This document shows, piece by piece, positions 1 through 12,156 of a stretch of 28,274 bases of DNA. This DNA is from a virus: the UHGV virus genome UHGV-1752292; one strand, 5' to 3'. The translations under genes and the position numbers were made by a program. Below the pieces are notes generated by a model, which saw only the letters and a program-made list of their open reading frames with translations, was not told where the DNA came from and did not search any database. The first letter of the stretch is position 1; the number at the start of each line of letters is the position of its first letter.

Positions 1-316
1 ACCTTTTGTGTAGTAGGTTTGGATAATGTAAAAGTCAAAAAATTCTTTTCCAAAGCTCTCAATATCTTTTTTAATATACTCAGAAGAAGTCTCATAAGTC
101 ATCCAATCACTTTCCTTAGTGACTATCTTCTTCCGAGTCTTACCAGCAACTTTTCTTTTGGTCACGCTATTAAACTGTTTCCTTCCGATATAATATTGTC
201 CAGTCTTCTTACAGTGTACTAAATAGACAAAGCCAAAATGTTTAGTGGGGTCAACTTCCCCACATAAAGATACCCAATGACCATAGGTAGGGCAATTACC
301 AAATCCTTTAATCTTC
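1..316 (-). CDS. GIY-YIG family homing endonuclease, N-terminal part (gene runs off the window start)
   Basis: Minus-strand ATG at 314-316 with GGGAG about 10 nt upstream; open frame to position 1 with no stop. Translation MKIKGFGNCPTYGHWVSLCGEVDPTKHFGFVYLVHCKKTGQYYIGRK shows GFVY...YYIG spacing typical of the GIY-YIG motif. Not in the ORF track because it is truncated. Confidence 0.45.
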
Positions 317-1348
317 ATTCATACAAGGCTCCCAATTATATTTCTTAAAAGTGAAATTATCTTTTGGATTTCTCTCTTGATATGCTATCCAGAAATGCTG
401 TTCCATTAACTCTAACGGTGTCTTTGTAACAGTCTGTCCATCCCATGACACATAGGTATAAGAGTCTTTTTTAGCATAGAGTTCATAGATAGCGTCAAGA
501 CACTCTTTATAGGTCTCTTTACCATCTAAAGCATTCATCACAGCTACTTTACCAGCACCTTTTAGTCCGAAGTAGTTGTCTGCATTATCTCCAGCAACAG
601 CCTGATAACACAAGAATTTAAAACCTACACCAACTGTTTTTGCAGCTTTTGGTTTTGATTTGATAGGGCAATCCCAGATATTACCAACATTATTATCAGC
701 AATAAAGATTAGTGGTGATTTTTCATAAGTCATATCAATACAATAAGTCCCTTCAGCTTGTCGAAGGTCTTTGTCAATACTCATAAGAGCAGCTTTCTTA
801 CCCATCTTTTCAGCTTTAGCAATTACGATTGAATCGGCTTCGAAGCCACCCTTTAAGAGTTTGAACTCTGGTCTTGACAGAAGATACTCACGACAAGCAA
901 CTAAGTGTGTTGGTGTGACAGCCTCTTTACGGTTACCTTGATATTGGTGCTCAAGACCTTTAATGTCTTTATGTTTATGTACACCCTTCTCTGTTAAATA
1001 ACCTACCCAAGTTCTTTCTTTACCAACAACCTTAAGCCATTCCTGAAGAACCTGTTGAGTAGCCATGATAGCTTCTTTTTCACTCTTAGCCTCTTTCCAA
1101 GTCTGTCTTTCCCATTCATCTTCATCAAATGTCAGGCCAAGCTCTTCCACAAGGATTCTCTGGTCTGCTAACCATCTTGCAGCATCTTTCGCATTATCAA
1201 ATGGCTCAGATTCTTCTGCTGTGAGTTTATTGACGTATTTATATTTTGCTTTCTCAACTACACAAGCACCTTTATAGGCAATACTGTCAGAGTCGATAAA
1301 GACATGTGTAACTGAATCGGGAAGTTTTGTTAGTGTATACTTCTCCAT
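308..1348 (-). CDS. 5'-3' exonuclease / flap endonuclease (T7 gp6-like, FEN/PIN fold)
   Basis: 346 aa; N-terminal VFIDSDSIAY acidic cluster and central MSIDKDLRQ motif resemble the metal-binding motifs of T7 gp6 / T5 D15-type exonucleases; GGAGAG RBS 7 nt upstream of the ATG. Confidence 0.7.
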   Translation of the reverse strand: MEKYTLTKLPDSVTHVFIDSDSIAYKGACVVEKAKYKYVNKLTAEESEPFDNAKDAARWLADQRILVEELGLTFDEDEWERQTWKEAKSEKEAIMATQQVLQEWLKVVGKERTWVGYLTEKGVHKHKDIKGLEHQYQGNRKEAVTPTHLVACREYLLSRPEFKLLKGGFEADSIVIAKAEKMGKKAALMSIDKDLRQAEGTYCIDMTYEKSPLIFIADNNVGNIWDCPIKSKPKAAKTVGVGFKFLCYQAVAGDNADNYFGLKGAGKVAVMNALDGKETYKECLDAIYELYAKKDSYTYVSWDGQTVTKTPLELMEQHFWIAYQERNPKDNFTFKKYNWEPCMNED

Positions 1349-1366
1349 TGTGGCTCTCCATATGAA

Positions 1367-1393
1367 AAAGCCCCATACTAAGTACAGGGCTTT
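1367..1393 (-). terminator. Putative intrinsic terminator/attenuator between the SSB and exonuclease genes
   Basis: Hairpin AAAGCCC / GGGCTTT (7 bp, about 13-nt loop); on the minus-strand transcript the stem is followed by a U-run. Weak-to-moderate and probably partial, since the exonuclease gene follows directly. Confidence 0.35.
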
Positions 1394-1410
1394 AAAGTAA
1401 CTTTTAGAGA

Positions 1411-2268
1411 TTAGTCTTCTGTATCGAAGTCTTCATCTTCTTCGTCATCTGGGTCTGGCAAGTCTTCATCGTCACCATCATCAGAATCATTCGAAGGTTT
1501 GTGGTCTTTTGCGTCTTCTTCAGTGATTTCACCGTTATCTTCGACACCATCAAGACCAAGCATAGCCAGTTCGTCTTCATCCAGTTCAGGTTCACCGTTA
1601 GCACCGTTACCACCAGTGTAAGGTACAAGGGTGTCAATGATAAACTGTTCCTGAATAGGTTTTGTCAGAACATTGTTCTCAAAAGTGTAGAAGTGAGTAG
1701 AAAGAATCACACTACCAAAAGAACCGTTACCAACTGCAATATCTGGATGAATTACATCATAGTTCTTGTCATCTTCATGTTTATCAGATGCTTGAGCTTT
1801 GATTTTCTTCATCGGCTGTTTAACAGCTACACGCTTACCATTTACTTCTTCAATCAGCATTACAGGGAATGACTGTTTAGCTGTCCACACAGCACCATCT
1901 TTATAAGCTGCTGCACGACTTACTTTCAAGATGTAGTAAGTGTCTGCTTCAAATGGTGGTTTGCAACCAAACTTCTCTTCGAAGTCATCTGCATCAACTG
2001 CTTCAGTAGTAACTTTATCCCAGCCTTCTGGATTTTTCTTAGACTTAGTAAACTCTTTAAACAGTTTGTTACCGTCTTCTGCCAGAATTGATACGCTGTA
2101 GTTACAGTCTTTGCCTGGGAATTTCTTATCAATAGACTTACCTTTTCCCGGACGTGGTGAAGTGTTCAGGTAATAAAACCAGACATCTTTCAGCAGGTAA
2201 CGCAGAGTTTGACGTTCAGTACCGTTGTACTTCTCTACCGGAGCTTTCATTTTAACAACTTTAGACAT
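1411..2268 (-). CDS. Single-stranded DNA-binding protein with acidic C-terminal tail (T7 gp2.5-like)
   Basis: 285 aa ending in a long Asp/Glu-rich tail (…DDGDDEDLPDPDDEEDEDFDTED), the hallmark of gp2.5-type SSBs; position next to primase-helicase and exonuclease genes. Confidence 0.55.
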   Translation of the reverse strand: MSKVVKMKAPVEKYNGTERQTLRYLLKDVWFYYLNTSPRPGKGKSIDKKFPGKDCNYSVSILAEDGNKLFKEFTKSKKNPEGWDKVTTEAVDADDFEEKFGCKPPFEADTYYILKVSRAAAYKDGAVWTAKQSFPVMLIEEVNGKRVAVKQPMKKIKAQASDKHEDDKNYDVIHPDIAVGNGSFGSVILSTHFYTFENNVLTKPIQEQFIIDTLVPYTGGNGANGEPELDEDELAMLGLDGVEDNGEITEEDAKDHKPSNDSDDGDDEDLPDPDDEEDEDFDTED

Positions 2269-2304
2269 TATTTAAACCTCTATCTCAATTTATGAAGAGT
2301 ACCA

Positions 2305-2334
2305 ATTCTAGTTTGTTGATACTCTATTGTCAAA
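2305..2334 (-). promoter_or_regulatory. Sigma70-like promoter upstream of the SSB gene (minus strand)
   Basis: On the minus strand TTGACA (plus 2329-2334) - 18 nt - TAGAAT (plus 2305-2310), about 35 nt upstream of the SSB start codon. Confidence 0.35.
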
Positions 2335-2340
2335 TACTAA

Positions 2341-2490
2341 TTACTGGAAGTTGTGCTTATCTTTAGAAGCTGCTTTACGTGCAGTTTTTCCAGTTCTTAC
2401 ACGTTTTTCTTCATAGTATTTTGCTGGTTTTCCAGCAGTGGCTTTTAAGGAATCCCCAAAAACTTTTTCAAATGCTTTAGAGTGTTTCAT
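2341..2490 (-). CDS. Small basic hypothetical protein (49 aa)
   Basis: Not in the ORF track (under 60 aa). ATG at 2488-2490 overlaps the TGA stop of the upstream ORF (ATGA coupling); GGAG 7 nt upstream. Translation MKHSKAFEKVFGDSLKATAGKPAKYYEEKRVRTGKTARKAASKDKHNFQ is Lys/Arg-rich. Confidence 0.3.
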   Translation of the reverse strand: MKHSKAFEKVFGDSLKATAGKPAKYYEEKRVRTGKTARKAASKDKHNFQ

Positions 2491-2780
2491 GATATTCTCC
2501 GATATACTTGATATTCAAACACATTTTCTTTAATTATAAACAGCCAACTAATATTATGCTGAGGCAGCGCAATGACGACTGTAATCATGTTCTGGTGGAA
2601 GTCTTCTTTTATCTCAACTTCTCCATCGCATTTCATGAGGAGCATTCTATAGAACCTATCAATCTTTGTCAAACACTCTTCCTGAAATTTATTTAAACTT
2701 TTTTCTTCAAAGAAGGGTGTGAACCCCTCTCTTTTATAGCTATCACTCAGTTTCGAATGGGCAGTCATCCGCATCCTCAC
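2487..2780 (-). CDS. Hypothetical protein
   Basis: 97-aa ORF in the operon; 5' end overlaps the primase-helicase stop by 38 nt, so the true start may be an internal Met; stop overlaps the start of the next small ORF. Confidence 0.35.
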   Translation of the reverse strand: MRMRMTAHSKLSDSYKREGFTPFFEEKSLNKFQEECLTKIDRFYRMLLMKCDGEVEIKEDFHQNMITVVIALPQHNISWLFIIKENVFEYQVYRRIS

Positions 2781-4734
2781 TTAATACAGGTGGAATCGTT
2801 GAGCTTTGACGCTGCTCTTCAGTATAGACTTCACCAGTCTCACGGTCAAACACTTCATCCTCATAATGTGGCAAAGAGTCATCATAATGGTCTTCAGCTT
2901 CACCAATACCAAACTGTTGGCGAATATTTTCTGCTGCACCATCAATATCAACACCACATCCAGAAGCTTTGATAAGACGTCCTGTATCTGGATTGTACCA
3001 AGTATGACCAGCAATACCTGTTGATTTACCATGACGACGACACTTAGTTAACTTGATTTTTGTCAAGTTTTTCTTAACAGGGTCTGGGTCAACCTTGTTA
3101 CGCATTAACAGAATGTTGTTCATAGAAATCTGGAAATACGCACCAGAGCCTTTAATATCCTCTTCAGAGATATCTCCACCTTCAGAGTTAGCCTTCTGAC
3201 CACCTGCACTCTTACGAACGTGACAGACGTTCACTTGTGCATACTGGTAGCGTTTGCAACGACGCAATAGCTCAGATAAAACTTCCTCTTCATCCGTATC
3301 TGAACGTGACAGAGCCAACGTAATAGGGTCAAGAATAATAATCTTACAGTCTAAGCTGTTAACAAGATAGTCAACAAACTCCAGCAAGTTATCTTGGTCA
3401 ATTGCCCCTTGATGGTCTACGATGTGGATACGACGACCTTTAGATAGTTCTGCGTGTGCTTCCTTCAATTCATCCCAATCACGTTCGTCATAAGGAATCT
3501 CAGCAATCTGCTTGCTAAGGTGGATTGCACAGAGCATCTCCATCAACTCTTCATAGGTATCCTCTACAGGAATTACACCAATATTGTAATCGGTATCTTT
3601 CCAAGCTGTGTAAATCATTTCACGAGTGTATGCTGATTTACCCACTGAAGATGGTGCTGCCAGAGTTGTAATCTCACCTAGACCATAACCACCATAAGTC
3701 AGCCTGTTCAAATCTCCGAAAGATTCTGGGAAAGGAATCAATGGAATCTGACCACGGTTCTTCATTGCCTCAAAACCATCTGCAAAGTTCTTGATACCAG
3801 CAGGGCAGTAACGAGGTGCATTGTAGATACGCTGCTTAAACCCTTCAAGAACTGTATCTTTCTCTTTATAGAACTTTGTCCACCATTCGTTAAGGTCTTT
3901 TACACCTTCTGGATACTGGAATAAACGAACCTTCTCAATAGGGAGAATGCCAGCAGCCTCTTTAGTGGCTTTAGCACCTGCTTCATCGTTATCAAAGCAC
4001 AAGTAAATCTCATCAAATGATGTGATGTACTGATAGTTGTCTTTGATAGACTTAATGTTTGCACCCGATGGAACAGATACGTGACAGTAATTCTTACGAC
4101 GAGACTTGTCCTTAATCGCAAGAGAAGTCATATAGATTGCTGTCGCACATTCCATCTCACCTTCCCAGATGAAGAGACGGTTACCACCTTCTGGAGCAAT
4201 CCATGAGCCGAACATTGCCAGTTCACCTTTAATGTCTCCAACACCACCAGAAAAGTCTTTTAACTTACCACGTAGGTGCTCTTTTGGGTGGTCTTCTGGG
4301 TAACGGTGACGAACACGGTAGCCAACATGCTCTAGCTTGCCATCTTCATTGCGTTTGTAAGTTGGGTAGAAATGCGCATCAATTTCACCATCACTGTCAA
4401 TATCAACCTTAATACCCAAACGCTCAAGAACTTTTGCAGGAATCTTCCTGTCTTTCAAGTCCATTGCTTCAAGGTTTTCTTTCACATCGTCTAAATCCAT
4501 TCCACGGAAAGTACGGTTTTTATTGTCTGAACCAGTAGAATAAGTGCTCACGATTTGTCCTTTATCAAAATCCCACTCTGGGAAACCTTTGTTACAACTA
4601 AAGCAAGTCATTGAATAAGAATCATCGTCATGATGATAGATTGAACCAGCATCTGATGAACCACAACGTGGACATGCACAATGACCAACAAACTGACCAG
4701 CCTCTTTCAATTTACGACCTTTAGACATTAGCAC
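2743..4734 (-). CDS. Bifunctional DNA primase-helicase (T7 gp4-like)
   Basis: 663 aa; N-terminal Cys4 zinc ribbon (CPRCGSSD…CFSCNKGF) resembling the T7 gp4 primase Zn motif; central acidic TOPRIM-like region; C-terminal DnaB-like helicase with Walker A (APSSVGKSAYT) and Walker B-like IILDPIT. Confidence 0.85.
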   Translation of the reverse strand: MLMSKGRKLKEAGQFVGHCACPRCGSSDAGSIYHHDDDSYSMTCFSCNKGFPEWDFDKGQIVSTYSTGSDNKNRTFRGMDLDDVKENLEAMDLKDRKIPAKVLERLGIKVDIDSDGEIDAHFYPTYKRNEDGKLEHVGYRVRHRYPEDHPKEHLRGKLKDFSGGVGDIKGELAMFGSWIAPEGGNRLFIWEGEMECATAIYMTSLAIKDKSRRKNYCHVSVPSGANIKSIKDNYQYITSFDEIYLCFDNDEAGAKATKEAAGILPIEKVRLFQYPEGVKDLNEWWTKFYKEKDTVLEGFKQRIYNAPRYCPAGIKNFADGFEAMKNRGQIPLIPFPESFGDLNRLTYGGYGLGEITTLAAPSSVGKSAYTREMIYTAWKDTDYNIGVIPVEDTYEELMEMLCAIHLSKQIAEIPYDERDWDELKEAHAELSKGRRIHIVDHQGAIDQDNLLEFVDYLVNSLDCKIIILDPITLALSRSDTDEEEVLSELLRRCKRYQYAQVNVCHVRKSAGGQKANSEGGDISEEDIKGSGAYFQISMNNILLMRNKVDPDPVKKNLTKIKLTKCRRHGKSTGIAGHTWYNPDTGRLIKASGCGVDIDGAAENIRQQFGIGEAEDHYDDSLPHYEDEVFDRETGEVYTEEQRQSSTIPPVLSEDADDCPFETE

Positions 4735-4921
4735 CTCTTCGTTGTAGTTCTGCCTTCAATCCATTTTCAATCTTGTTCAGTTCATGAATTTCATCTGCAA
4801 TCTCTTTCCTTCGTGATTCAACTCTCTTAAGACGTTCAATCATTACCTCATTGGAAAGAGATGAGAGTTCCACTAAACGGTGGTCAATAACTTTAAAATT
4901 GTCTTTTACTCTCATCTTCAT
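4721..4921 (-). CDS. Hypothetical small coiled-coil protein
   Basis: 66-aa ORF between the dNMP kinase and primase-helicase genes; stop overlaps the primase-helicase start by 14 nt; charged heptad-like sequence. Confidence 0.4.
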   Translation of the reverse strand: MKMRVKDNFKVIDHRLVELSSLSNEVMIERLKRVESRRKEIADEIHELNKIENGLKAELQRRGANV

Positions 4922-4929
4922 TATCTCTT

Positions 4930-5673
4930 TTAAACTTTAATGATGGCTCTTAGCTTGTTCTCAAGGTCTGCAAGAGTACCATTATTATGAATAATGTCAC
5001 GCTCATATTTTGTAGAAATCCCATTTTCTGAAACATGTGATGAAACTTTGTCCACATTGTCTCTTTTTACTTCAATAGTTTGGTGTGCAAATCTACTCAG
5101 CCATTCAGCTTCAGAGTCAAATCTTAAATCACTGATTAAGACAAAACCATATTGATTTCTAAGTGAGCACATTTCATGGAATCTAACCATTCTTTTTTCA
5201 AGGTCTTTAGACCAGAACTTGTCGCCCATTACTTTACGGACAACTTCAGTACCCCAAATCTGTTGAATTTGTCTTGATGAGAATTTATACTTTTTGCTAA
5301 ACCCCAGACGTGTCAATAGAGTCGGTTTAGCAACCTTCTTAAGCTCCATGATTAATCGTCCGGTTAACTCTGACATAAGCTTGAAGTCCATATGGTAACG
5401 TTCATCCCTGAAGGTGAACTCCATAGCTTCCGTAACTTTAAACATCAGTTCATGATATGATAAGTCAAATACCTGCGGAGTCTCTTTAGTTTCACCATAC
5501 AGGTCATTCCAAGTCAGGTCAAATATCTTTGATGCAGACAGTTTAAGGTTGTCTGCAAAGGCCATTACAGCAACATTGTAGCCGTGCTCATCCTCTAAGA
5601 TGTTCTTCACAATAGAACATGAGGTGTCTTTTCCAGAACGTGCCTTTCCAGTAAATGCGATAATATTACTCAT
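4930..5673 (-). CDS. Deoxynucleoside monophosphate kinase (T4 gp1-like)
   Basis: 247 aa; N-terminal P-loop IAFTGKARSGKDT matches the phage dNMP kinase motif (T4 gp1 GVKRSGKDT); GGAG RBS. Confidence 0.65.
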   Translation of the reverse strand: MSNIIAFTGKARSGKDTSCSIVKNILEDEHGYNVAVMAFADNLKLSASKIFDLTWNDLYGETKETPQVFDLSYHELMFKVTEAMEFTFRDERYHMDFKLMSELTGRLIMELKKVAKPTLLTRLGFSKKYKFSSRQIQQIWGTEVVRKVMGDKFWSKDLEKRMVRFHEMCSLRNQYGFVLISDLRFDSEAEWLSRFAHQTIEVKRDNVDKVSSHVSENGISTKYERDIIHNNGTLADLENKLRAIIKV

Positions 5674-5690
5674 TTTATCTCCATTAATTA

Positions 5691-5717
5691 CTAAAAAGCC
5701 CCCAACTAAGGAGGCTT
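5691..5717 (-). terminator. Intrinsic terminator (minus strand)
   Basis: On the minus-strand RNA: AAGCCUCC - uuaguu - GGGGGCUU (8-bp stem with one G-U pair) followed by UUUUU; sits in the 61-nt gap between the 266-aa ORF and the dNMP kinase gene. Confidence 0.45.
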
Positions 5718-5734
5718 GTAAGATTTATAAAGAC

Positions 5735-6535
5735 TTAGTGCAGTTGCTCAGCAGACTCTTTTTCAGCCATAGCTGAGATTTGCTTCACAAAATCATCACC
5801 GAAGTTAATGCGTAGTTTCTCTTCAATGATTGAAGCACCAATGTTCACCAAAACATCATTGATTGCTTGCATACTAACGCCACCAGTCATTTCCTCAATG
5901 AACTCAATACTCACACCCATCATCTGTGACAGTTGGATTAGTGCAACGATATTCATCATCGTAGAGATAGCTGGAATCATCAGTGCAACTTTCACCTGAA
6001 GTGGTTCAATGTCAGCTACAGAGTCATTTTCAACAGCTTCTTCCAAAGACTCTTTAGTTTGCTGGATAATCTCTTTGATTCGTGGGTTTAATTCTTCTAC
6101 GCCCCAATCAAGTTTTTCATATCGTGAAAGTTTCTCTTCCATGCGCTTCTCAAGAGCAGCCATAACAGCACTAGTTGATGAAATTAACAGGTCAATTAGT
6201 TCATCATTACCTGCGAGTAGTAGCAAGTCTTTTTCTTCAGTGGTCATGGCAATATAGTCATTTTTCTGCATCTCATAAAAAATGAACTCTGCAAGAGCAT
6301 CAACACCTACAACGATAGATGCTAAAGCAAGTGTTTTGTCGCAAAGCATCATGTTGACCTGTTCTGCAAAAGCACCGTTATCAGACTTGTCTTCAGGCAA
6401 GTTATAGCTTGCAGGCATAAACTGTTCTGTGTAGTTGTTGCCACGAAGAATCATAGCCATGCTTTCTACGGCATTGATTAAGAATGCTTCATCAACACCT
6501 TTCTCTTCAAGCATCTTTTCTACATCGATATTCAT
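5735..6535 (-). CDS. Hypothetical acidic protein
   Basis: 266-aa ORF, visibly rich in Glu/Asp with few Lys/Arg; no recognisable catalytic motif; second gene of the leftward operon. Confidence 0.5.
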   Translation of the reverse strand: MNIDVEKMLEEKGVDEAFLINAVESMAMILRGNNYTEQFMPASYNLPEDKSDNGAFAEQVNMMLCDKTLALASIVVGVDALAEFIFYEMQKNDYIAMTTEEKDLLLLAGNDELIDLLISSTSAVMAALEKRMEEKLSRYEKLDWGVEELNPRIKEIIQQTKESLEEAVENDSVADIEPLQVKVALMIPAISTMMNIVALIQLSQMMGVSIEFIEEMTGGVSMQAINDVLVNIGASIIEEKLRINFGDDFVKQISAMAEKESAEQLH

Positions 6536-6536
6536 A

Positions 6537-6959
6537 TTATTTCTCTCTCAGTTGGTTAAGTTTCTTTCTAGAACATTTTAAGTTTTCGGATGAAGAAAAG
6601 TCAAGTGTCTTTTCAGAACGTGGATAGTAATGTCTATCCCAAGAAGTTTCAACATCGTTAATCAGTGACGCTAGATTACACAGGTCTGTACCACTTTGCA
6701 ACCTCTTTTTAAGAGAATCTAGTAAAGCAACTGTGTCTTTAGCTTTACGTCTCGCTGTAGCAACATCTTTCATATGCTCAAATACAGAGCATTTTAAGTC
6801 ATCTTCATAGTTTTCAGACAACTCTATTTCATGTTGTATATCAACCATTCTCCTGTGATGGTGAGCATATTCCCGTTGAGCAGCAATGTCAAGTTCTTCC
6901 AACTTCTGCAAAGCCCTAACAAAGTCAGCTATGTCTGGGTGAACAAACATTTTCTGCAT
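6537..6959 (-). CDS. Hypothetical protein (first gene of leftward operon)
   Basis: 140-aa ORF directly downstream of the divergent AT-rich control region; no recognisable motif. Confidence 0.5.
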   Translation of the reverse strand: MQKMFVHPDIADFVRALQKLEELDIAAQREYAHHHRRMVDIQHEIELSENYEDDLKCSVFEHMKDVATARRKAKDTVALLDSLKKRLQSGTDLCNLASLINDVETSWDRHYYPRSEKTLDFSSSENLKCSRKKLNQLREK

Positions 6960-7216
6960 GTAAGCCTCTTTTAAGTAACTATTAAGTTTTAATCTTTTAT
7001 CTTAACGTATTCTATACGTTATACTTTAAAGCTTTTTAAAAGCTATTAAATAATCTTTTAAGAGTTTTAAAGTATCTGTATAGTTAAACTGTTAAGTAAC
7101 CTTTTAAGTAAAAACCCACTTCGCAAAGATTAACACCTTGTCAAGTACATTGTCAACTTGCTTTTTATAATTTTTTGCAGTAATGTATGAGGTTAATGAT
7201 TTTAGAGGGAGTAAAA
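6960..7216. promoter_or_regulatory. Divergent AT-rich intergenic control region
   Basis: About 255 bp of AT-rich non-coding DNA between divergently transcribed operons; TATAAT at 7166-7171 about 45 nt upstream of the polymerase start; near-palindrome AGCTTTTTAAAAGCT (7030-7044); recurring CTTTTAAG(A/T) motifs. No clean -35 could be paired with the -10. Confidence 0.4.
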
Positions 7217-9359
7217 ATGGAAAACGTAGATTTTAAAAACTTACATTTAGTTGGTGATACAGAGACTGATGGTTTACTCCTTGAGTTCACTAAGGTGCAC
7301 GTAATGGCTTTCGCAGACTATAAATCTGACGATGAAGAGCCTCCTGTATGGGTCTTTACAGATGAGCCTATCCTCGGTCACAAGTATACCAAGTACATTA
7401 AGGGTGGCTTGCGTGAAGGTGTTGAGTTTGCGTTAAAGGCAAAACGACTTTGCATCCATAATGGTTTAGGGTATGACTGGTGGGTTTTCAATCATATTGC
7501 ACCTGATTTGTGGAACTTTGATAATCCAAAGTGTAAGCCGTGGAGTAATTTCTTTCAGGATTCTCTTATCCAGTCTCGTGTTCAGTGGATGGATAGACCA
7601 ACTCCAAAGGGCTATAAAGGTGCTCATGGCTTGGCAGCATGGGGTGCTCGTGTTGGTGTACGTAAACCAGAGATTGAACATTGGGGTGTGTGGAATGCAG
7701 AAATCTTCACTCGTGTTGTAGAAGATATTCGTATTAACGCCAAAACTAAACGTGCACTGGATAATGAATATCTCAAGCTAAAGAAGTGTGGCGTAGATAC
7801 TTATGAAACCTACATGCGAGCTAAAGAAACATCTTTCTGGATGAGTCAACAAGCTATCAATGGTTGGAAAGCTGATAAAGAGCTTATGGAGTTCCATGTA
7901 AAGGAACTTGACAAGTTGACTAATGAACTTGCTTCAGAGGTTGAACCACATCTACCTCCAACTATTAAGACCAAAGGTAAAGTCACTGGAGAAGAGTTTG
8001 CAAAAGCTTGGAATGAGTATGTTGAAACATTCGGTCATGCAGATGGACTGAAGAGGATTACCAAGTACCCTAAGACAAAGTATCGTCAGCAGGTACGTAA
8101 CGGTGAGATGCAGACATATGAAATCAAGCCATTTGGTAAACCAACTACCAAAATTTTTAACATTGAAAAGCGGAATTGCTATACACCAACCAACTCCGTA
8201 ACTGGTGAAGAGTACAAGGAAGGTTTTGTAGCAATGAAGGATGCTCGTGCAATTTGCAATGAGTTGAATGCAAAGATTGGTAAGAAGTGCAAAGACTGGA
8301 AGCCAGTAAAAACAGTTAAAACTGTGAAGTACTATAATAGCCATGTTGTTAACCACTTTGAACTTGAGTCAAGTCGCTACACAGGTTTGATTGATGCACC
8401 ATATACACCAATTGAGTTCGAAGTTTCTCGTATGACTCAAGTAGCAGTTGTTAAAGACTACTTGAAATCAGTTGGTTGGATTCCAGATGACTGGAACTAC
8501 AAGAAAGACTCAGATGGTCGTCCTGTTAAGGTTTGTCGTTTCAAAGACAACAAAAAGATGATTACAAAACATCCTAAGTGGGATGAGATGGTGGAACGGT
8601 GTGGTTTGAGTTATGTTGAACATGAAGGTGTCCAGTACATTGAACATAACTGGTCTGTGAAGAAGTACACAGATTTGCTTGAACCTTGCTTAATCCGTAC
8701 TTCACCAAAACTTACTGAATCATCTTATGATACGATTGAAGGTGAACTTGGACAGAAGATTGCTAAGTACTACACTTTGATGCACCGACGCAGAACTATT
8801 GAGAACTCAAAGGATGATGAAAAAGGTTGGTTGAACCAGATTCGTCCTGATGGTCGCCTTAGTGCTGGTGCAATGGTGTTTGGTACTTCAACTGGACGTA
8901 TGACACAATATGGTATTGTAAACGTACCATCTGGTGCTGCTGTCTATGGAGCGCCTATGAGGGAGGTTTGGATTTGCGAGGAAGGGACTAATATCGTTTC
9001 AGTTGACCAGAACTCTGCACAGCTTGTTTTACTGTGCAACTTTATGGGTGATAAAGACTTCACCAAAGCGGTAACTGAAGGTAAAGAGTTTGTAGAGTTC
9101 ACTAAACAGGATGATGGACGATACTACTGCAAGCATCTTGATAAGTACCTAAATCCAGAGGCTGATAAATATTGTCGTTACGATGCTGATAACGATTTGT
9201 ATGAAGTCTACACAGGTACTGATGCGCATACACTTAACAGTATCTATTTTGCATTGAACAAAGAAGAAGATATTATCCGTTGTAGAGAGACACAGGATGA
9301 GGAACTTCTTCACGAGATAACTAAAGGCCGTAAGAAGGCTAAGAATGGTATCTATGCGT
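7217..9359 (+). CDS. DNA polymerase (family A, T7 gp5-like), exon 1
   Basis: ATG at 7217 preceded by AGAGGGA (the track ORF starts in-frame at 7187). 3'-5' exonuclease Exo I motif VGDTETDGL near the N-terminus; motif A-like IVSVDQNSAQL; frame runs into the first half of motif B (AKNGIYA) before the intron. Exon end set by the predicted P1 helix (see findings). Confidence 0.8.
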
Positions 9360-10164
9360 CAGTGGCGCATGTAAAACGTTGTGAATTGCTGGAAGCCTAA
9401 GTCTTAAAAGATATGGTAATCAGCAGCGAAGTCTCTGTTAGGACTCCTATAGTAGAAATGGGAGAGAGACAATGGTAGGTTATAAAGAGAGAGTTTGTTC
9501 CAGATGTGGCGAAGAGTTTAAGCCATATCAGTACAATCAAAAACGTTGCAGAAACTGCGTTCTTGAAGTAGACAGGAGAGCAGCAAGCCGTGTCATAGAA
9601 AAGGTATGTCCAAGCTGCAATAACCAATTCACACCTAGAACAGCAAGACAGACATATTGCAGTTCTGCATGTGGAGAAAAGGGAAAGGTAAAGAACTACT
9701 ACTTAAGGACTTACGGCCTAGAAAGAGAAGAGGTTGAAGAGTTGTTAAGTAAATGTGGCCATAAGTGCCAAATCTGTGGCGGTGAAGGTTTCATCATGAA
9801 TGGTTCAAGACATAAAGCTAAACTTGTTGTTGACCATGACCACAAAACAGGTAAGGTGAGAGGGATGTTGTGCCACAACTGTAACAGAGGTCTTGGCTTG
9901 TTCTCAGACAGTGTAGATAATATGCAGAGAGCAATTGCATACCTTAGTAAACAATAGTATTTTAGAGTTCCTAACAGAGAAACGTTCAGAGACTATCGAA
10001 AAGCATACTTAATGTATGAACTGAGTAGAGTAGGGTGGTAAGCTAATGACCATTCCCAAGTGCAACGGTAGTATTACTACTACGTGATATAGTCCGACAC
10101 TCCGTAGAAATGCGGAGAAGTTCATAAGAGAACTGGTACACCTTGCGAGTGTATTGACCAGATG
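9360..10164 (+). mobile_element. Group I self-splicing intron (805 nt) carrying a homing endonuclease ORF
   Basis: P-like element AATTGCTGGAAG (9384-9395) pairing with Q-like AATCAGCAGC (9418-9427); R-like GTTCAGAGACTA (9984-9995) and S-like GATATAGTCC (10086-10095) able to form P7; predicted P1 with U-G pair at the 5' splice site; intron ends in G10164; ORF sits between Q and R (P6 loop). Confidence 0.7.
9472..9957 (+). CDS. Intron-encoded HNH homing endonuclease (Endonuclease VII-like)
   Basis: 161 aa; VVDHDHKTGKVRGMLCHNCNRGLGLF matches the T4 endonuclease VII / HNH core (DHDH…GKVRG.LC..CN); two N-terminal CxxC pairs; GGGAGAGAGA RBS upstream. Confidence 0.8.
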   Translation: MVGYKERVCSRCGEEFKPYQYNQKRCRNCVLEVDRRAASRVIEKVCPSCNNQFTPRTARQTYCSSACGEKGKVKNYYLRTYGLEREEVEELLSKCGHKCQICGGEGFIMNGSRHKAKLVVDHDHKTGKVRGMLCHNCNRGLGLFSDSVDNMQRAIAYLSKQ

Positions 10165-10721
10165 TATTGTTCGGTGCAGGTGATGAGAAGTTTGCTAAGA
10201 CAATTAAGACTGCAACTACTCAGGAAGGTGCACTGACTAAACAGACTTACTTTATTCGTTTGCCTAAAATTAAGAAGCTGCTAGATGACTTGGAAGCTGA
10301 CTACAAAGCGACTAAAAAGGCACTTGAAGAGGTATTTGGTAAGACTGCTGCAATCTCTAAAGGGGGTTTTGTAAAGGTTGCTGGAGCTTGGTTGTGGTGT
10401 AAATCTCCACATAAGTTATTGAATTATTTGCTTATGGGTTCGGAAAGCCAGATTCAGAACGAGGCAATTAACCTCGCTTGCCGTCGTATGATTGACGAAG
10501 GTTTGATGAAGTTAAACGGTCGCAAACCAGCTATAGGTGCTCGTTTATTGTGCTCCTATCACGACGAGACGAGTTGGGAATGCCCAGAAAGTATGACGGC
10601 AGAGGTGAAAGCTGTTACTGATTGGTATTACGGACAAGCCTCTAAGAACTTAGGGCTTAAGAGTGAAACACTAGTAACTGGTACTGGTAAGGTTGGTAAG
10701 TCGTGGTTGGAAGTACATTAA
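10165..10721 (+). CDS. DNA polymerase (family A), exon 2
   Basis: Begins in the second half of motif B (LFGAGDEK, compare T7 YGAGDEK) and contains motif C (SYHDE). The track ORF 10167-10721 starts at TTG, which is not a genuine initiation codon here. Confidence 0.75.
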
Positions 10722-10731
10722 TGGTGTCAAA

Positions 10732-11259
10732 ATGATTACACAAGAACGTTTAAAGGAGCTACTACACTATGACCCCGAAACAGGGGTCTTTACTTGGCTT
10801 CGTAGAGATGGTGACTCAAGGGCTGTTAAAGTCTTTAACAGTCAGTACGCAGGACAGGTAGCGGGGAGCATCCAGATTGACTCAACTGGCCATAAACAGC
10901 TAACTATCTATTTTGACAAGAAAGCACATAAAGCGCACAGACTCGCATGGCTGTATGTGTATGGGAGTTTACCGAGAGGGATTATTGACCATGTTAATGG
11001 GGACTCTCTTGATAACAGGATTGTAAACTTAAGAGAAGCAGATGACTGTCAAAGTGCTTGGAATAAAAGCAAACTAGCCACCAATAAATCAGGCTATAAG
11101 GGTGTAAGTCTGAAGAAGAAGACTGGTAGGTGGGTTGCACAAATAAGCTATAAAGGTAAAAAGATGTTCTTAGGCTACTACGACACACCAGAAGAAGCCC
11201 ATAAAGCTTACTGTGAAGCTGCTATAAAACTCCACGGAGAGTTTGCAAAACTATCTTGA
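10732..11259 (+). CDS. Free-standing HNH homing endonuclease with AP2-type DNA-binding domain
   Basis: ATG at 10732 (track ORF starts at TTG 10693); HNH_3-like motif HRLAWLYVYG…IDHVNGDSLDNRIVNLR followed by AP2-like SGYKGVS…GRWVAQISYKGKKMFLGYYDTPEEAHKAY. Confidence 0.7.
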   Translation: MITQERLKELLHYDPETGVFTWLRRDGDSRAVKVFNSQYAGQVAGSIQIDSTGHKQLTIYFDKKAHKAHRLAWLYVYGSLPRGIIDHVNGDSLDNRIVNLREADDCQSAWNKSKLATNKSGYKGVSLKKKTGRWVAQISYKGKKMFLGYYDTPEEAHKAYCEAAIKLHGEFAKLS

Positions 11260-11310
11260 CAAGGTGCTCATGGAAGAGTATCTTATACTATATCTTGTAT
11301 AGGAGGCCAT

Positions 11311-11523
11311 ATGACACTTGCAGACGTTATTCAGCAACTTCACGACAATTGCTATACTCCAGAGTTGATTCAAGAGATGCTTATTGTGGTGATGCCTAGT
11401 AAGTTCGTAAAAGGTTTTAATAGTGAATCTTTAAAGTCTGCGCATATCCTTATTGTTGACGGTAAGATTGCAAGAGACCGTACAGGAGTCCTCAAGGGTG
11501 AACGTATTAGTATTGGCCTCTGA
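11311..11523 (+). CDS. Hypothetical protein
   Basis: 70-aa ORF with strong RBS AGGAGG 6 nt upstream; a possible TTGACA-N17-TATCTT promoter lies at 11256-11284. Confidence 0.45.
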   Translation: MTLADVIQQLHDNCYTPELIQEMLIVVMPSKFVKGFNSESLKSAHILIVDGKIARDRTGVLKGERISIGL

Positions 11524-11540
11524 GTATTGGGAGTACCAAA

Positions 11541-11696
11541 ATGAAACGCAAAGTAAAATTATTTAGCTTATATGGAAGAGTCGGTAAAGGTTTTGATTGG
11601 CAACTGCTACGTTCAGATGTTAAAAGCAACGAGTTAGCACAGCTTATTATAAACTATCGACGAACGTACAGAGAGGTAGAACATCGTGAACAGTAA
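11541..11696 (+). CDS. Hypothetical small protein (51 aa)
   Basis: Not in the ORF track; ATG at 11541 with GGGAG RBS; stop overlaps the GTG start of the next ORF. Confidence 0.3.
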   Translation: MKRKVKLFSLYGRVGKGFDWQLLRSDVKSNELAQLIINYRRTYREVEHREQ

Positions 11697-11940
11697 AATT
11701 GAAAAGTCTGATGAAGTTATCAGAAGCAAAGACAAAGCTACATCCCTAATCGCTGACGCTTGGAGCAGAGGCTTAGATTACGAATGGTATCTTAGTGTAT
11801 GCCAAGAGTTATCAGTCTCCCCAGCATCAAAAGAAACTTTCGATAAACTCTACGTAGTTTGCCAAGATGGGTACAATGAAGCCATGCTTCAAAACTGCAT
11901 GAGTTTAATCAACCCAAAAGCATCTGACTTATTCTTTTAA
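11686..11940 (+). CDS. Hypothetical protein
   Basis: 84-aa ORF, probable GTG start with GAGGTA RBS about 8 nt upstream. Confidence 0.4.
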   Translation: MNSKIEKSDEVIRSKDKATSLIADAWSRGLDYEWYLSVCQELSVSPASKETFDKLYVVCQDGYNEAMLQNCMSLINPKASDLFF

Positions 11941-11949
11941 GGTGAAGAT

Positions 11950-12156
11950 ATGGAAGCCCTAGTAAACTATATCTACTGTTATGATGTTGTTCACTCCACT
12001 ACAACGGTAGCTCAACGTAATCCAATCGTCCCACGAGAGGGGGAGTTGGTTCGAATTGAGGGTTGGACTTACACTGTGGAAAGCATCATTCATAAGTTTG
12101 ATGTTGCTGGTGATGTTCAGGTTATCGACGTAGAGATTGGTGGTAAGAGAAAATGA
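11950..12156 (+). CDS. Hypothetical protein
   Basis: 68-aa ORF, AAGGTGAAG RBS; stop overlaps the next start (ATGA). Confidence 0.45.
   Translation: MEALVNYIYCYDVVHSTTTVAQRNPIVPREGELVRIEGWTYTVESIIHKFDVAGDVQVIDVEIGGKRK

Follow-up and report, generated by a model that had tools for sequence, protein, structure and literature searches.

Probable selfish elements in the replication module of a Felixounavirus: a polymerase-gene group I intron with an EndoVII-type reading frame, a free-standing HNH-AP2 gene, and a fixed GIY-YIG look-alike

Here we report the analysis of a 28,274-nt stretch of viral DNA (UHGV virus genome UHGV-1752292; the whole stretch is called the window), which contains the replication module of a Felixounavirus (Ounavirinae), a Felix O1-like myovirus. 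Three endonuclease genes are present in this module (Table 1). Very probably, two of them belong to real selfish elements, namely a group I intron that interrupts the DNA polymerase gene and carries an EndoVII-type open reading frame (ORF), and a free-standing HNH-AP2 gene behind the polymerase gene; the third, a GIY-YIG nuclease gene next to the exonuclease gene, would then be a look-alike. The direct basis of this reading consists of protein domains, intron boundaries, presence/absence polymorphism among relatives, mosaic flanks and selection regimes. An earlier analysis of the same DNA (the original prediction) had described three homing endonucleases of different families; all three ORFs were recovered with the predicted domains, at most 2 nt away from the predicted coordinates, and Pfam supports the GIY-YIG, EndoVII and HNH assignments.

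The ends of the intron were set by alignment to the uninterrupted polymerase gene of phage wV8. Joining position 9359 to position 10165 gives GCG-TTA-TTG in the same frame as in wV8 and reads KNGIYALLFGAGDEKF, or ...KNGIYA^LLFGAGD in the protein (the caret marks the insertion site here and below); without splicing, translation of the polymerase ends at 9398-9400. The insertion point is the leucine codon after ...KNGIYA, in polymerase motif B (O helix). Alignment with T7 DNA polymerase places the site in RDNAKTFIYG^FLYGAG, between the equivalents of T7 G527 and F528, which we take to correspond roughly to 763/764 of E. coli Pol I by the standard equivalence of the two enzymes. Helix P1 is formed by the exon nucleotides AUGCGU (9354-9359) and GCGCAU (9365-9370), with six pairs and U9359.G9365 at the splice site, and the intron ends in ...CAGAUG, with G as its last base. 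The P6a arms (9432-9443 and 9969-9980) form a 12-bp helix that extends P6 and holds the ORF in its loop. In the sequence sample, all intron-bearing alleles read GCGU^UAUUG, and 17 of the 19 intronless alleles have GC(A/C)C on the exon-1 side. Phages phiSUSP1 and phiSUSP2 are intronless yet have the intron-type 5' flank GCGT, as would be expected after precise loss of the intron. Upstream, the polymerase probably starts at ATG 7217, behind the ribosome-binding site GAGGGAG; another in-frame ATG lies at 7187.

The Rfam model RF00028 yields only two half-matches in the window (24.3 and 15.4 bits, at 9348-9503 and 9909-10117; gathering score 50), because the 538-nt ORF insert splits the ribozyme at P6. 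The intron was recovered with an E-value threshold and with the help of an ORF-less relative: the copy in Salmonella phage BPS17L1, which is 99% identical to the window intron over the shared 267 nt, scores 63.8 bits against the same model (E=4.3e-16). This copy has a short P6, and a compensatory change from U-A to C-G (GUCUCU with AGAGAA to GCCUCU with AGAGGA) divides the two intron types. With the frame restored relative to wV8 and an ORF-less copy above the gathering score, the predicted intron-borne position of the EndoVII-type ORF holds, and the interruption is, judged from its sequence, a true group I intron, whose splicing in vivo would keep the polymerase functional. Partial matches to the ribozyme core (P3-P7; 73-85%) were also seen in phages of Flavobacterium, Bacillus, Staphylococcus, Vibrio (ICP1) and Lactococcus and in N4-like Escherichia phages, always in stretches that lack annotation; they probably represent further, so far unannotated, group I introns of this broad family.

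The intron was found in 96-97 of about 270 related records, 41 with the ORF and about 56 without it, and about 170 records are intronless. The ORF is intact in every carrier, and its ratio of nonsynonymous to synonymous substitution rates (dN/dS) is 0.04 in comparison with Escherichia phage Barry. The relatives thus show three states (intronless, intron without ORF, intron with ORF), which is the sporadic distribution at a fixed site that is expected of a DHHRN-type element. The ORF-less introns occur in two forms, a clean one of 268 nt and one of 311 nt (warpig type); in the latter, the final bases of the ORF are retained together with the P6a stem, so that it arose by deletion. Felix O1 and wV8 are both intronless, and the Felix O1 polymerase is described as uninterrupted (906 aa) in a genome paper that reports no introns (PMC3185647). 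Together, intron and ORF of the window are 99.3% identical to those of phage SP4, while the surrounding 10.7 kb are only 94.7% identical, which points to a recent lateral transfer of the intron with its ORF.

The second element, the HNH-AP2 gene, begins 11 nt after the polymerase stop codon, exactly as predicted. Both of its domains are well supported by Pfam (HNH_3, 1.6e-13, 50.5 bits, cut-off 24.8; AP2, 1.1e-12, 48.5 bits, cut-off 33.3), and the protein matches PHROG 99 (1.6e-71). The HNH catalytic motif DHVNGDSLDNRIVNLR is intact, and the C-terminal AP2 half aligns with solved plant AP2/ERF structures (ERF/WRI1). The gene is placed exactly between the polymerase TAA and the TTGACA promoter-like site of the next gene, so that the -35 hexamer of this site overlaps the HNH-AP2 stop codon; HNH-free genomes have the promoter site 6 nt past the polymerase stop. 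The slot is empty (61 nt) in wV8, Barry, EC6 and the related locus L005, and in other relatives it contains a small ORF, this gene, or paralogues (47-54% identical in protein), which may or may not be accompanied by the small ORF. This particular gene was found in 61 of 273 records (at least 80% coverage), and paralogues of 41-54% identity fill this and other slots in relatives. The ORFs are intact, with dN/dS of 0.1-0.3 (0.11-0.18 for this gene). The gene is probably co-transcribed with the polymerase gene.

A hairpin followed by TTTACTT lies within the HNH-AP2 ORF (Table 1); it resembles the internal terminator of T4 mobE and, by this analogy, is a candidate attenuator. Its stem codons (GAC CCC ... 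GGG GTC) are invariant at synonymous sites in all paralogues (41-92% protein identity), whereas neighbouring codons do vary synonymously. This conservation was judged on paralogues picked by their peptide motif, since a tabulation on sequences selected by the pattern itself would be circular and was not used. A similar peptide stretch in the primase-helicase gene (NPDTG) has no such stem. No enrichment of terminator-like sites in general was seen (2 against 2.4 expected). The same stem occurs at no fewer than 120 sites in viral contigs, almost all of them non-coding terminators with a U-run behind the stem; the hairpin was therefore rejected as a signature of the HNH-AP2 family, the stem being a common terminator shape.

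ORF-less introns are associated with a downstream HNH gene. The state of the intron and of the slot could be read in 88 of the approximately 97 intron-bearing records, mostly from match spans and annotations rather than from sequence; in the synthetic queries an ORF-less intron was followed by exon 2, an unoccupied slot and the gene behind it, which denied carriers of the HNH gene any advantage in ranking. Among the distinct ORF-less records listed (of about 56), ORF-less introns with and without a downstream HNH gene number 44:0. In all 44 the slot is longer by 500-730 bases, and those records that are annotated name an HNH endonuclease there. The corresponding ratios are 14:20 for ORF-bearing introns and 11:8 for intronless genomes (sequence sample). 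Fisher's exact test gives 7e-10, or 4e-6 after near-identical isolates are collapsed; these tests ignore phylogeny, the states behind them are mostly span-inferred, and about 10 of the approximately 56 ORF-less records lie outside the listing. The association fits a mobE-like trans homing, in which the repair tracts of the HNH gene would carry the intron along.

The most serious competitor of this interpretation is mere shared ancestry, that is, one haplotype sampled many times. Many of the isolates are indeed near-identical (REP5-12, SUT_S720/820/920, BPS17W1/15S6/17S6), which together with the lack of phylogenetic correction favours such an explanation. It is nevertheless doubtful, because there are two independent ORF-less intron forms and each of them occurs with both A-type and B-type HNH genes (47-51% identical), with or without an extra small ORF. 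The parts must therefore have recombined repeatedly, yet no genome with an ORF-less intron and no HNH gene was seen among the records listed, whereas both other intron states were found with and without the HNH gene.

The flanks of the two elements also bear on their mobility. Sequence identity to 23 related loci was determined in 150-nt bins and then by segment (Table 1, with values for 17 close relatives). The polymerase gene is uniform from 7187 to 8949 (about 96%) and mosaic in 8950-9359 and in exon 2, the 1 kb that surrounds both elements (74-99%), which agrees with its proposed role as a recombination hotspot. The 410 nt in front of the intron site, where the close sequences (91-99%) are those of Barry, BPS17L1 and EC6, can be read as a co-conversion tract. 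In exon 2 the nearest relative changes between 150-nt bins. Across this tract and exon 2, breakpoints are spaced by a few hundred bases. Barry illustrates the pattern: its identity to the window is 99-100% for the exon-1 flank and ribozyme, but 91% for the ORF and 85% for exon 2, and its synonymous divergence (dS) is 0.20 in exon 1 and 0.79 in exon 2. Such a mosaic would be expected of repeated repair tracts begun at two nearby cut sites, and it supports the hotspot reading. Differences linked to the presence of the HNH gene are strongest in the last eight polymerase codons (10698-10718, the last ~25 nt); all of them are synonymous, a six-fold serine switch (AGC to TCG) among them. The target of the HNH-AP2 enzyme is thus probably located in the last ~25 bp of the polymerase gene, and on the polymerase DNA of wV8 the enzyme is predicted to cut near AAAAGCTGGCTTGAAGTACACTAA.

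These differences also bear on strict collaborative homing, in which the HNH enzyme would cut at the intron site itself and the intron would shield its carrier from self-cleavage. The constant company of ORF-less introns and downstream HNH genes in the listed records would suit this scheme, as would the distance of merely 557 bp between the HNH gene and the intron site. We consider it unlikely, however, because at least 11 intronless genomes of the sequence sample and at least 15 GenBank records have an HNH gene in the slot. Within 75 nt on either side of the intron site, the HNH-bearing loci L017, L019 and L025 differ from the HNH-free loci L005 and L010 at no more than a few scattered synonymous positions, and no position separates genomes with the gene from those without it, so that HNH-bearing intronless genomes would be targets of their own enzyme; it is at the 3' end of the polymerase gene that substitutions tell the two groups apart. 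Since no HNH-distinguishing substitution surrounds the intron site in intronless genomes, cleavage by the HNH enzyme at that site was rejected.

The GIY-YIG gene behaves differently from the two elements at the polymerase gene. The gene, with its ATG at 318-316 (predicted at 316), overlaps the exonuclease stop codon TAA (310-308) as predicted, the overlap being 11 nt, and in the window the junction of the two genes is unoccupied, the genes overlapping directly. The fragment within the window scores 74.3 bits with SegE_GIY-YIG, and the full 165-aa protein of Barry 97.4 bits (9.4e-28), with the domain at residues 21-138. The gene follows the exonuclease gene in 261 of 296 matching records, Erwinia phages included. 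Protein identity is 95-100% in the core clade and 86-87% in the clade of Moogle and phiSUSP1, and dN/dS is 0.00-0.05 with dS saturating, a constraint equal to that of the neighbouring exonuclease gene. The sporadic presence and absence expected of a GIY-YIG homing endonuclease was not observed. Outside the 118-residue catalytic domain, no second (DNA-binding) domain was detected with Pfam in the 165-aa protein. A sequence search of the PDB with this protein returned only noise, and a wider homologue search from the fragment gave only 6 clusters. About 30 unrelated viral contigs from the environment (L059-L089, IMG/VR) have a homologue of 40-46% identity directly upstream of a gene for a gp4-like primase-helicase, a synteny that suggests a conserved role in replication modules. 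On these comparisons, the GIY-YIG ORF is a fixed, strongly conserved nuclease gene of the replication module and not a homing element in its behaviour; being fixed everywhere, it has no empty sites remaining to home into.

The original prediction had treated all three genes as mobile, on the understanding that ubiquitous presence at identical positions would speak against mobility. Mobility stands for the intron with its EndoVII-type ORF, which shows three states, and for the HNH-AP2 gene, whose slot may be empty or variably filled, and it falls for the GIY-YIG gene. That all three genes are active, independently mobile homing endonucleases, with both the exonuclease and the polymerase gene as marker-exclusion loci, is accordingly improbable. 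Each of the proteins has the right catalytic domain, the GIY-YIG domain is of the SegE type, some GenBank records name a 'GIY-YIG homing endonuclease', and the Seg proteins of T4 are free-standing homing endonucleases. Against this stand the same site of the GIY-YIG gene in 261 of 296 records down to the Erwinia phages, a protein conserved at 86-100% with dN/dS of at most 0.05 at saturated dS, the lack of a detected DNA-binding domain, and distant homologues that are syntenic with a primase-helicase gene. No evidence was found for the exonuclease gene as a marker-exclusion locus driven by the GIY-YIG enzyme, identity along the exonuclease gene itself not having been profiled. Although the window protein shares the SegE-type domain with T4 Seg proteins and I-TevI, its 165 aa without a detected DNA-binding domain, its fixed and syntenic position and its purifying selection make its behaviour closer to that of a housekeeping nuclease than to that of a Seg element; T4 endonuclease II, a small GIY-YIG nuclease that stands alone, may be a better comparison.

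Three further observations concern this gene. In wV8, Si3, the Moogle group and EC6, an HNH-AP2 paralogue is inserted between the exonuclease and GIY-YIG genes; it is this paralogue, which the window lacks, that forms the mobile element of the junction. The GIY-YIG gene of EC6 is split by a frameshift into ORFs of 87 aa and 91 aa and could be a pseudogene or the result of a sequencing error. The label of PHROG 447, 'NAD synthetase', has been copied into many GenBank records, and Pfam finds only the GIY-YIG domain; the label is probably a propagated annotation error.

The intron-borne protein matches PHROG 307 ('endonuclease VII', 2.8e-43), and its closest solved structures are Hpy99I (2e-7) and T4 endonuclease VII (0.013), aligned over CxxC...DHDH...R...CxxCN. 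Its C-terminal motif comprises CQIC99-102, DHDH121-124, R130 and CHNCN134-138, and the N-terminal half contains CxxC pairs resembling zinc ribbons. That this protein should be a Holliday-junction resolvase of the phage (the equivalent of T4 gp49) that lies in the intron by chance is hardly credible: the Pfam family is named 'Recombination endonuclease VII' and every catalytic residue of T4 EndoVII is kept, but about 85% of the relatives lack the ORF, so that an essential resolvase is out of the question, zinc-ribbon-like modules precede the C-terminal motif as in the endonuclease clade and unlike the resolvase clade, Fang et al. place the orthologues of JH2, EC6 and FSL SP-010 in the endonuclease clade (PMC6083498), and the best structural relative, Hpy99I, is a sequence-specific enzyme. 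By analogy with characterised enzymes, the EndoVII-type protein is predicted to cut within a few tens of bp of GGTATCTATGCAC^TGCTGTTCGG on the polymerase DNA of wV8.

From these data we infer that the enzymes cleave DNA and at which sites, that the intron is spliced in vivo and in which direction transfer went, and propose the following mechanism. During co-infection, the EndoVII-type enzyme would cut or nick intronless polymerase alleles, as characterised phage intron endonucleases do, and repair from intron-bearing genomes would copy in the intron together with some flanking exon; self-splicing of the RNA would preserve polymerase function. Genomes without the HNH-AP2 gene would be cut near its insertion point, which would let the gene spread, and because this point is 557 bp from the intron site, its repair tracts could carry the intron along, which amounts to mobE-like trans homing. 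The genus appears to show every stage of endonuclease turnover, and more tentatively, at somewhat less than an even chance, the polymerase locus may be a natural time series of this turnover with the window as an intermediate. An armed intron would first gain an HNH-AP2 neighbour 557 bp downstream (the doubly armed state of the window, DE7 and PC79-13); the intronic ORF would then be deleted, leaving remnants as in the warpig type; and the disarmed intron would finally survive solely as a passenger of HNH repair tracts. Independently of this series, the same tentative reading takes the GIY-YIG gene of Ounavirinae (PHROG 447) to encode a nuclease of the replication module that was either domesticated or never selfish.

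Several points weigh against the reading of two selfish elements and one look-alike, in addition to the limits of the co-occurrence tests given above. At the Rfam gathering threshold nothing is found in the window, its own intron falling below the cut-off. The minimum-free-energy fold of the ORF-less copy of the intron is unremarkable in comparison with shuffled sequences (z = -1.45), although such a value is usual for group I introns and hence uninformative. The HNH-linked polymorphisms at the polymerase 3' end may be linked co-conversion tracts rather than immunity changes. The AlphaFold2 (AF2) model of the GIY-YIG protein is poor (mean predicted local distance difference test score, pLDDT, 54.6; five-sequence alignment), so that its fold and catalytic geometry rest on Pfam alone. 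Finally, no data on enzyme activity or splicing in this phage or another Felixounavirus were found in the papers searched.

In the phage collection, 263 records match the first 11.3 kb of the window at 80-96% identity. Nearly all are Felix O1-like phages of Escherichia, Salmonella, Shigella and Citrobacter, and the closest is Barry (96.1% over 1-10699). Coverage of 9160-11523 does not exceed 87% in any record of the collection; DE7 and PC79-13 share the architecture, but their parts are more divergent. Gene order is that of annotated relatives. The minus strand encodes the GIY-YIG ORF, the 5'-3' exonuclease, a 285-aa protein, the primase-helicase, a deoxynucleoside monophosphate (dNMP) kinase and two more proteins; the plus strand carries the two-piece gene of the family-A DNA polymerase, small ORFs and the genes for DNA ligase, dihydrofolate reductase (DHFR) and thymidylate synthase, followed by tail genes. 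Pfam found no other endonuclease domain in the larger ORFs of the rest of the window, NCBIfam has no model for any of the three endonucleases, and a scan of the whole window revealed no tRNA.

Table 1. Features of the window and identity of polymerase segments to 17 close relatives.
Feature	Position	Strand	Basis or remarks
GIY-YIG nuclease gene, 5' two-thirds (106 of ~165 codons)	1..318	-	Pfam SegE_GIY-YIG E=1.3e-20; cut by window edge
5'-3' exonuclease gene	308..1348	-	Weak NCBIfam 5'-3' exonuclease / Pol I N-terminal matches; exodeoxyribonuclease in annotated relatives
Intergenic region and polymerase 5' end			98-99% identity
Polymerase segment	7187..8949		94.7-97.8% identity
DNA polymerase (family A) exon 1	7217..9359	+	Comparison with relatives, Pfam
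Segment of 410 nt before intron site	8950..9359	+	74-77% identity to 13 relatives, 85% to one and 91-99% to three
Group I intron, 805 nt	9360..10164	+	Junction compared with intronless wV8, Rfam, pairings
EndoVII-motif (DHHRN) endonuclease gene, 161 aa	9472..9957	+	Pfam Endonuclease_7 E=9.5e-20; PHROG 307
DNA polymerase exon 2	10165..10721	+	Stop TAA 10719-10721; mosaic ancestry; 76-94% identity
HNH-AP2 gene, 175 aa	10732..11259	+	Pfam HNH_3 and AP2
Hairpin GACCCC-GAAACA-GGGGTC, then TTTACTT	10771..10788	+	39 nt into HNH-AP2 ORF; encodes D-P-E-T-G-V
Promoter-like TTGACA-17-TATCTT for downstream gene	11256..11284	+	10/12 consensus matches, best in 4.7 kb

Divergent promoters or an origin of replication may lie in the divergent intergenic region between the minus- and plus-strand blocks (6960-7216), where the GC skew changes sign (at about 7000). 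The most conserved segment of the comparison is 6537-7186 (97.5-99.5%), which includes the left part of this region and the neighbouring minus-strand ORF. A further variable patch lies downstream of the polymerase gene at about 11500-11950, where the small ORFs 11541-11696 and 11686-11940 have matches in few of the 23 related loci, mainly EC6 and L023; an 84-aa ORF within this patch has no Pfam domain. In records MG065664 and MG065668 (Campylobacter phages A132 and A126) and in GU169904 (Staphylococcus phage SA1), sequence of the Felixounavirus polymerase, intron and HNH gene is present at 83-93% identity, which suggests mis-assigned or contaminated assemblies.

The results are of immediate value for annotation, because most GenBank records list 'DNA polymerase (x2)' without an intron feature, some name the intron ORF 'DNA polymerase I', and many use 'NAD synthetase' for the GIY-YIG gene. 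Of modest wider interest are the O-helix intron site, which lies outside the three sites listed in PMC3428280, the contrast between the uniform 5' two-thirds and the mosaic 3' third of the polymerase gene, and the exclusive occurrence of disarmed introns with a neighbouring free-standing endonuclease gene in the listed records. If true, the turnover series would be population-scale evidence for trans homing of the mobE type and for the 'HEG turnover' origin put forward by Barth et al. 2023. Both sets of genomes required for cross tests have already been isolated, and Felixounaviruses are easily grown and widely used in biocontrol, which makes them a convenient trans-homing system outside T4. 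The association of disarmed introns with the HNH gene and the role of the fixed GIY-YIG nuclease are perhaps the parts most worth experiments.

Intron-borne EndoVII-type genes, HNH-AP2 genes and their gain and loss in Felix O1-like phages are already known. Fang et al. 2018 (PMC6083498) assigned the EndoVII-motif proteins of JH2, EC6 and FSL SP-010 to the DHHRN family and listed them as encoded by introns. These represent the same gene, intron and host gene, EC6 and FSL SP-010 matching the intron and ORF of the window at 91-99%, and with the C-terminal motif and all DHHRN residues in common there is no essential difference. In the literature searched, neither splice junctions nor an insertion site are given, nor are ORF-less derivatives or frequencies in the population, and direct searches returned no description of a Felixounavirus polymerase intron. 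Introns with HNH endonucleases in family-A polymerase genes have been described for SPO1, SP82 and Bastille (I-HmuI, I-HmuII, I-BasI), Pf-WMP3 (I-PfoP3I), phiL7 and the T7-like phages PhiI and W31 (I-TslI) (PMC3428280). As in the window, the endonuclease ORF of PhiI, W31 and Pf-WMP3 is located in the P6a loop (PMC3428280), and an unspliced transcript likewise stops soon after exon 1. The window differs in the insertion site, which is in motif B (O helix) instead of 674, 676 or 881 as listed in PMC3428280, and in its endonuclease, which has an EndoVII/DHHRN motif instead of the classical HNH motif of those systems.

HNH-AP2 endonucleases were attributed to Felix O1, RB49, Trichodesmium and Tetrahymena by Magnani et al. 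2004, as cited in PMC5318435, and Felix O1 is reported to have six HNH endonuclease genes (PMC3185647). The window gene has the same two-domain architecture and belongs to the same phage group; this copy sits after the polymerase gene. Gain and loss of endonuclease genes, both between and within conserved genes, has been described as the main difference among Felix O1-like phages (Moreno Switt et al. 2013, PMC3728262), and endonuclease turnover has been proposed as the origin of collaborative homing loci (Barth et al. 2023, PMC10448857).

The closest parallel that has been worked out is mobE of T4, a free-standing HNH gene that lacks a promoter, has an internal hairpin terminator 27 nt past its AUG and bears the promoter of the downstream gene in its 3' end (Wilson & Edgell 2009, PMC2790892), which mobilises the neighbouring nrdB intron with its defunct I-TevIII (PMC2790892). 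Like mobE, the HNH-AP2 gene is intergenic, lies beside a conserved gene that bears an intron, lacks a promoter of its own and is placed for co-transcription; its hairpin is 39 nt after the start instead of 27 nt, and both genes have a downstream promoter at the 3' end. Unlike mobE, with which it shares no homology, it has an HNH_3 and AP2 architecture, and the host gene is a polymerase gene and not nrdB. The window is known from sequence alone, and its intron, unlike that of nrdB, keeps an intact endonuclease of its own, which makes it the doubly armed stage. In both mobE/nrdB and the Felixounavirus records listed, an endonuclease-less intron within co-conversion distance persists only alongside the free-standing gene.

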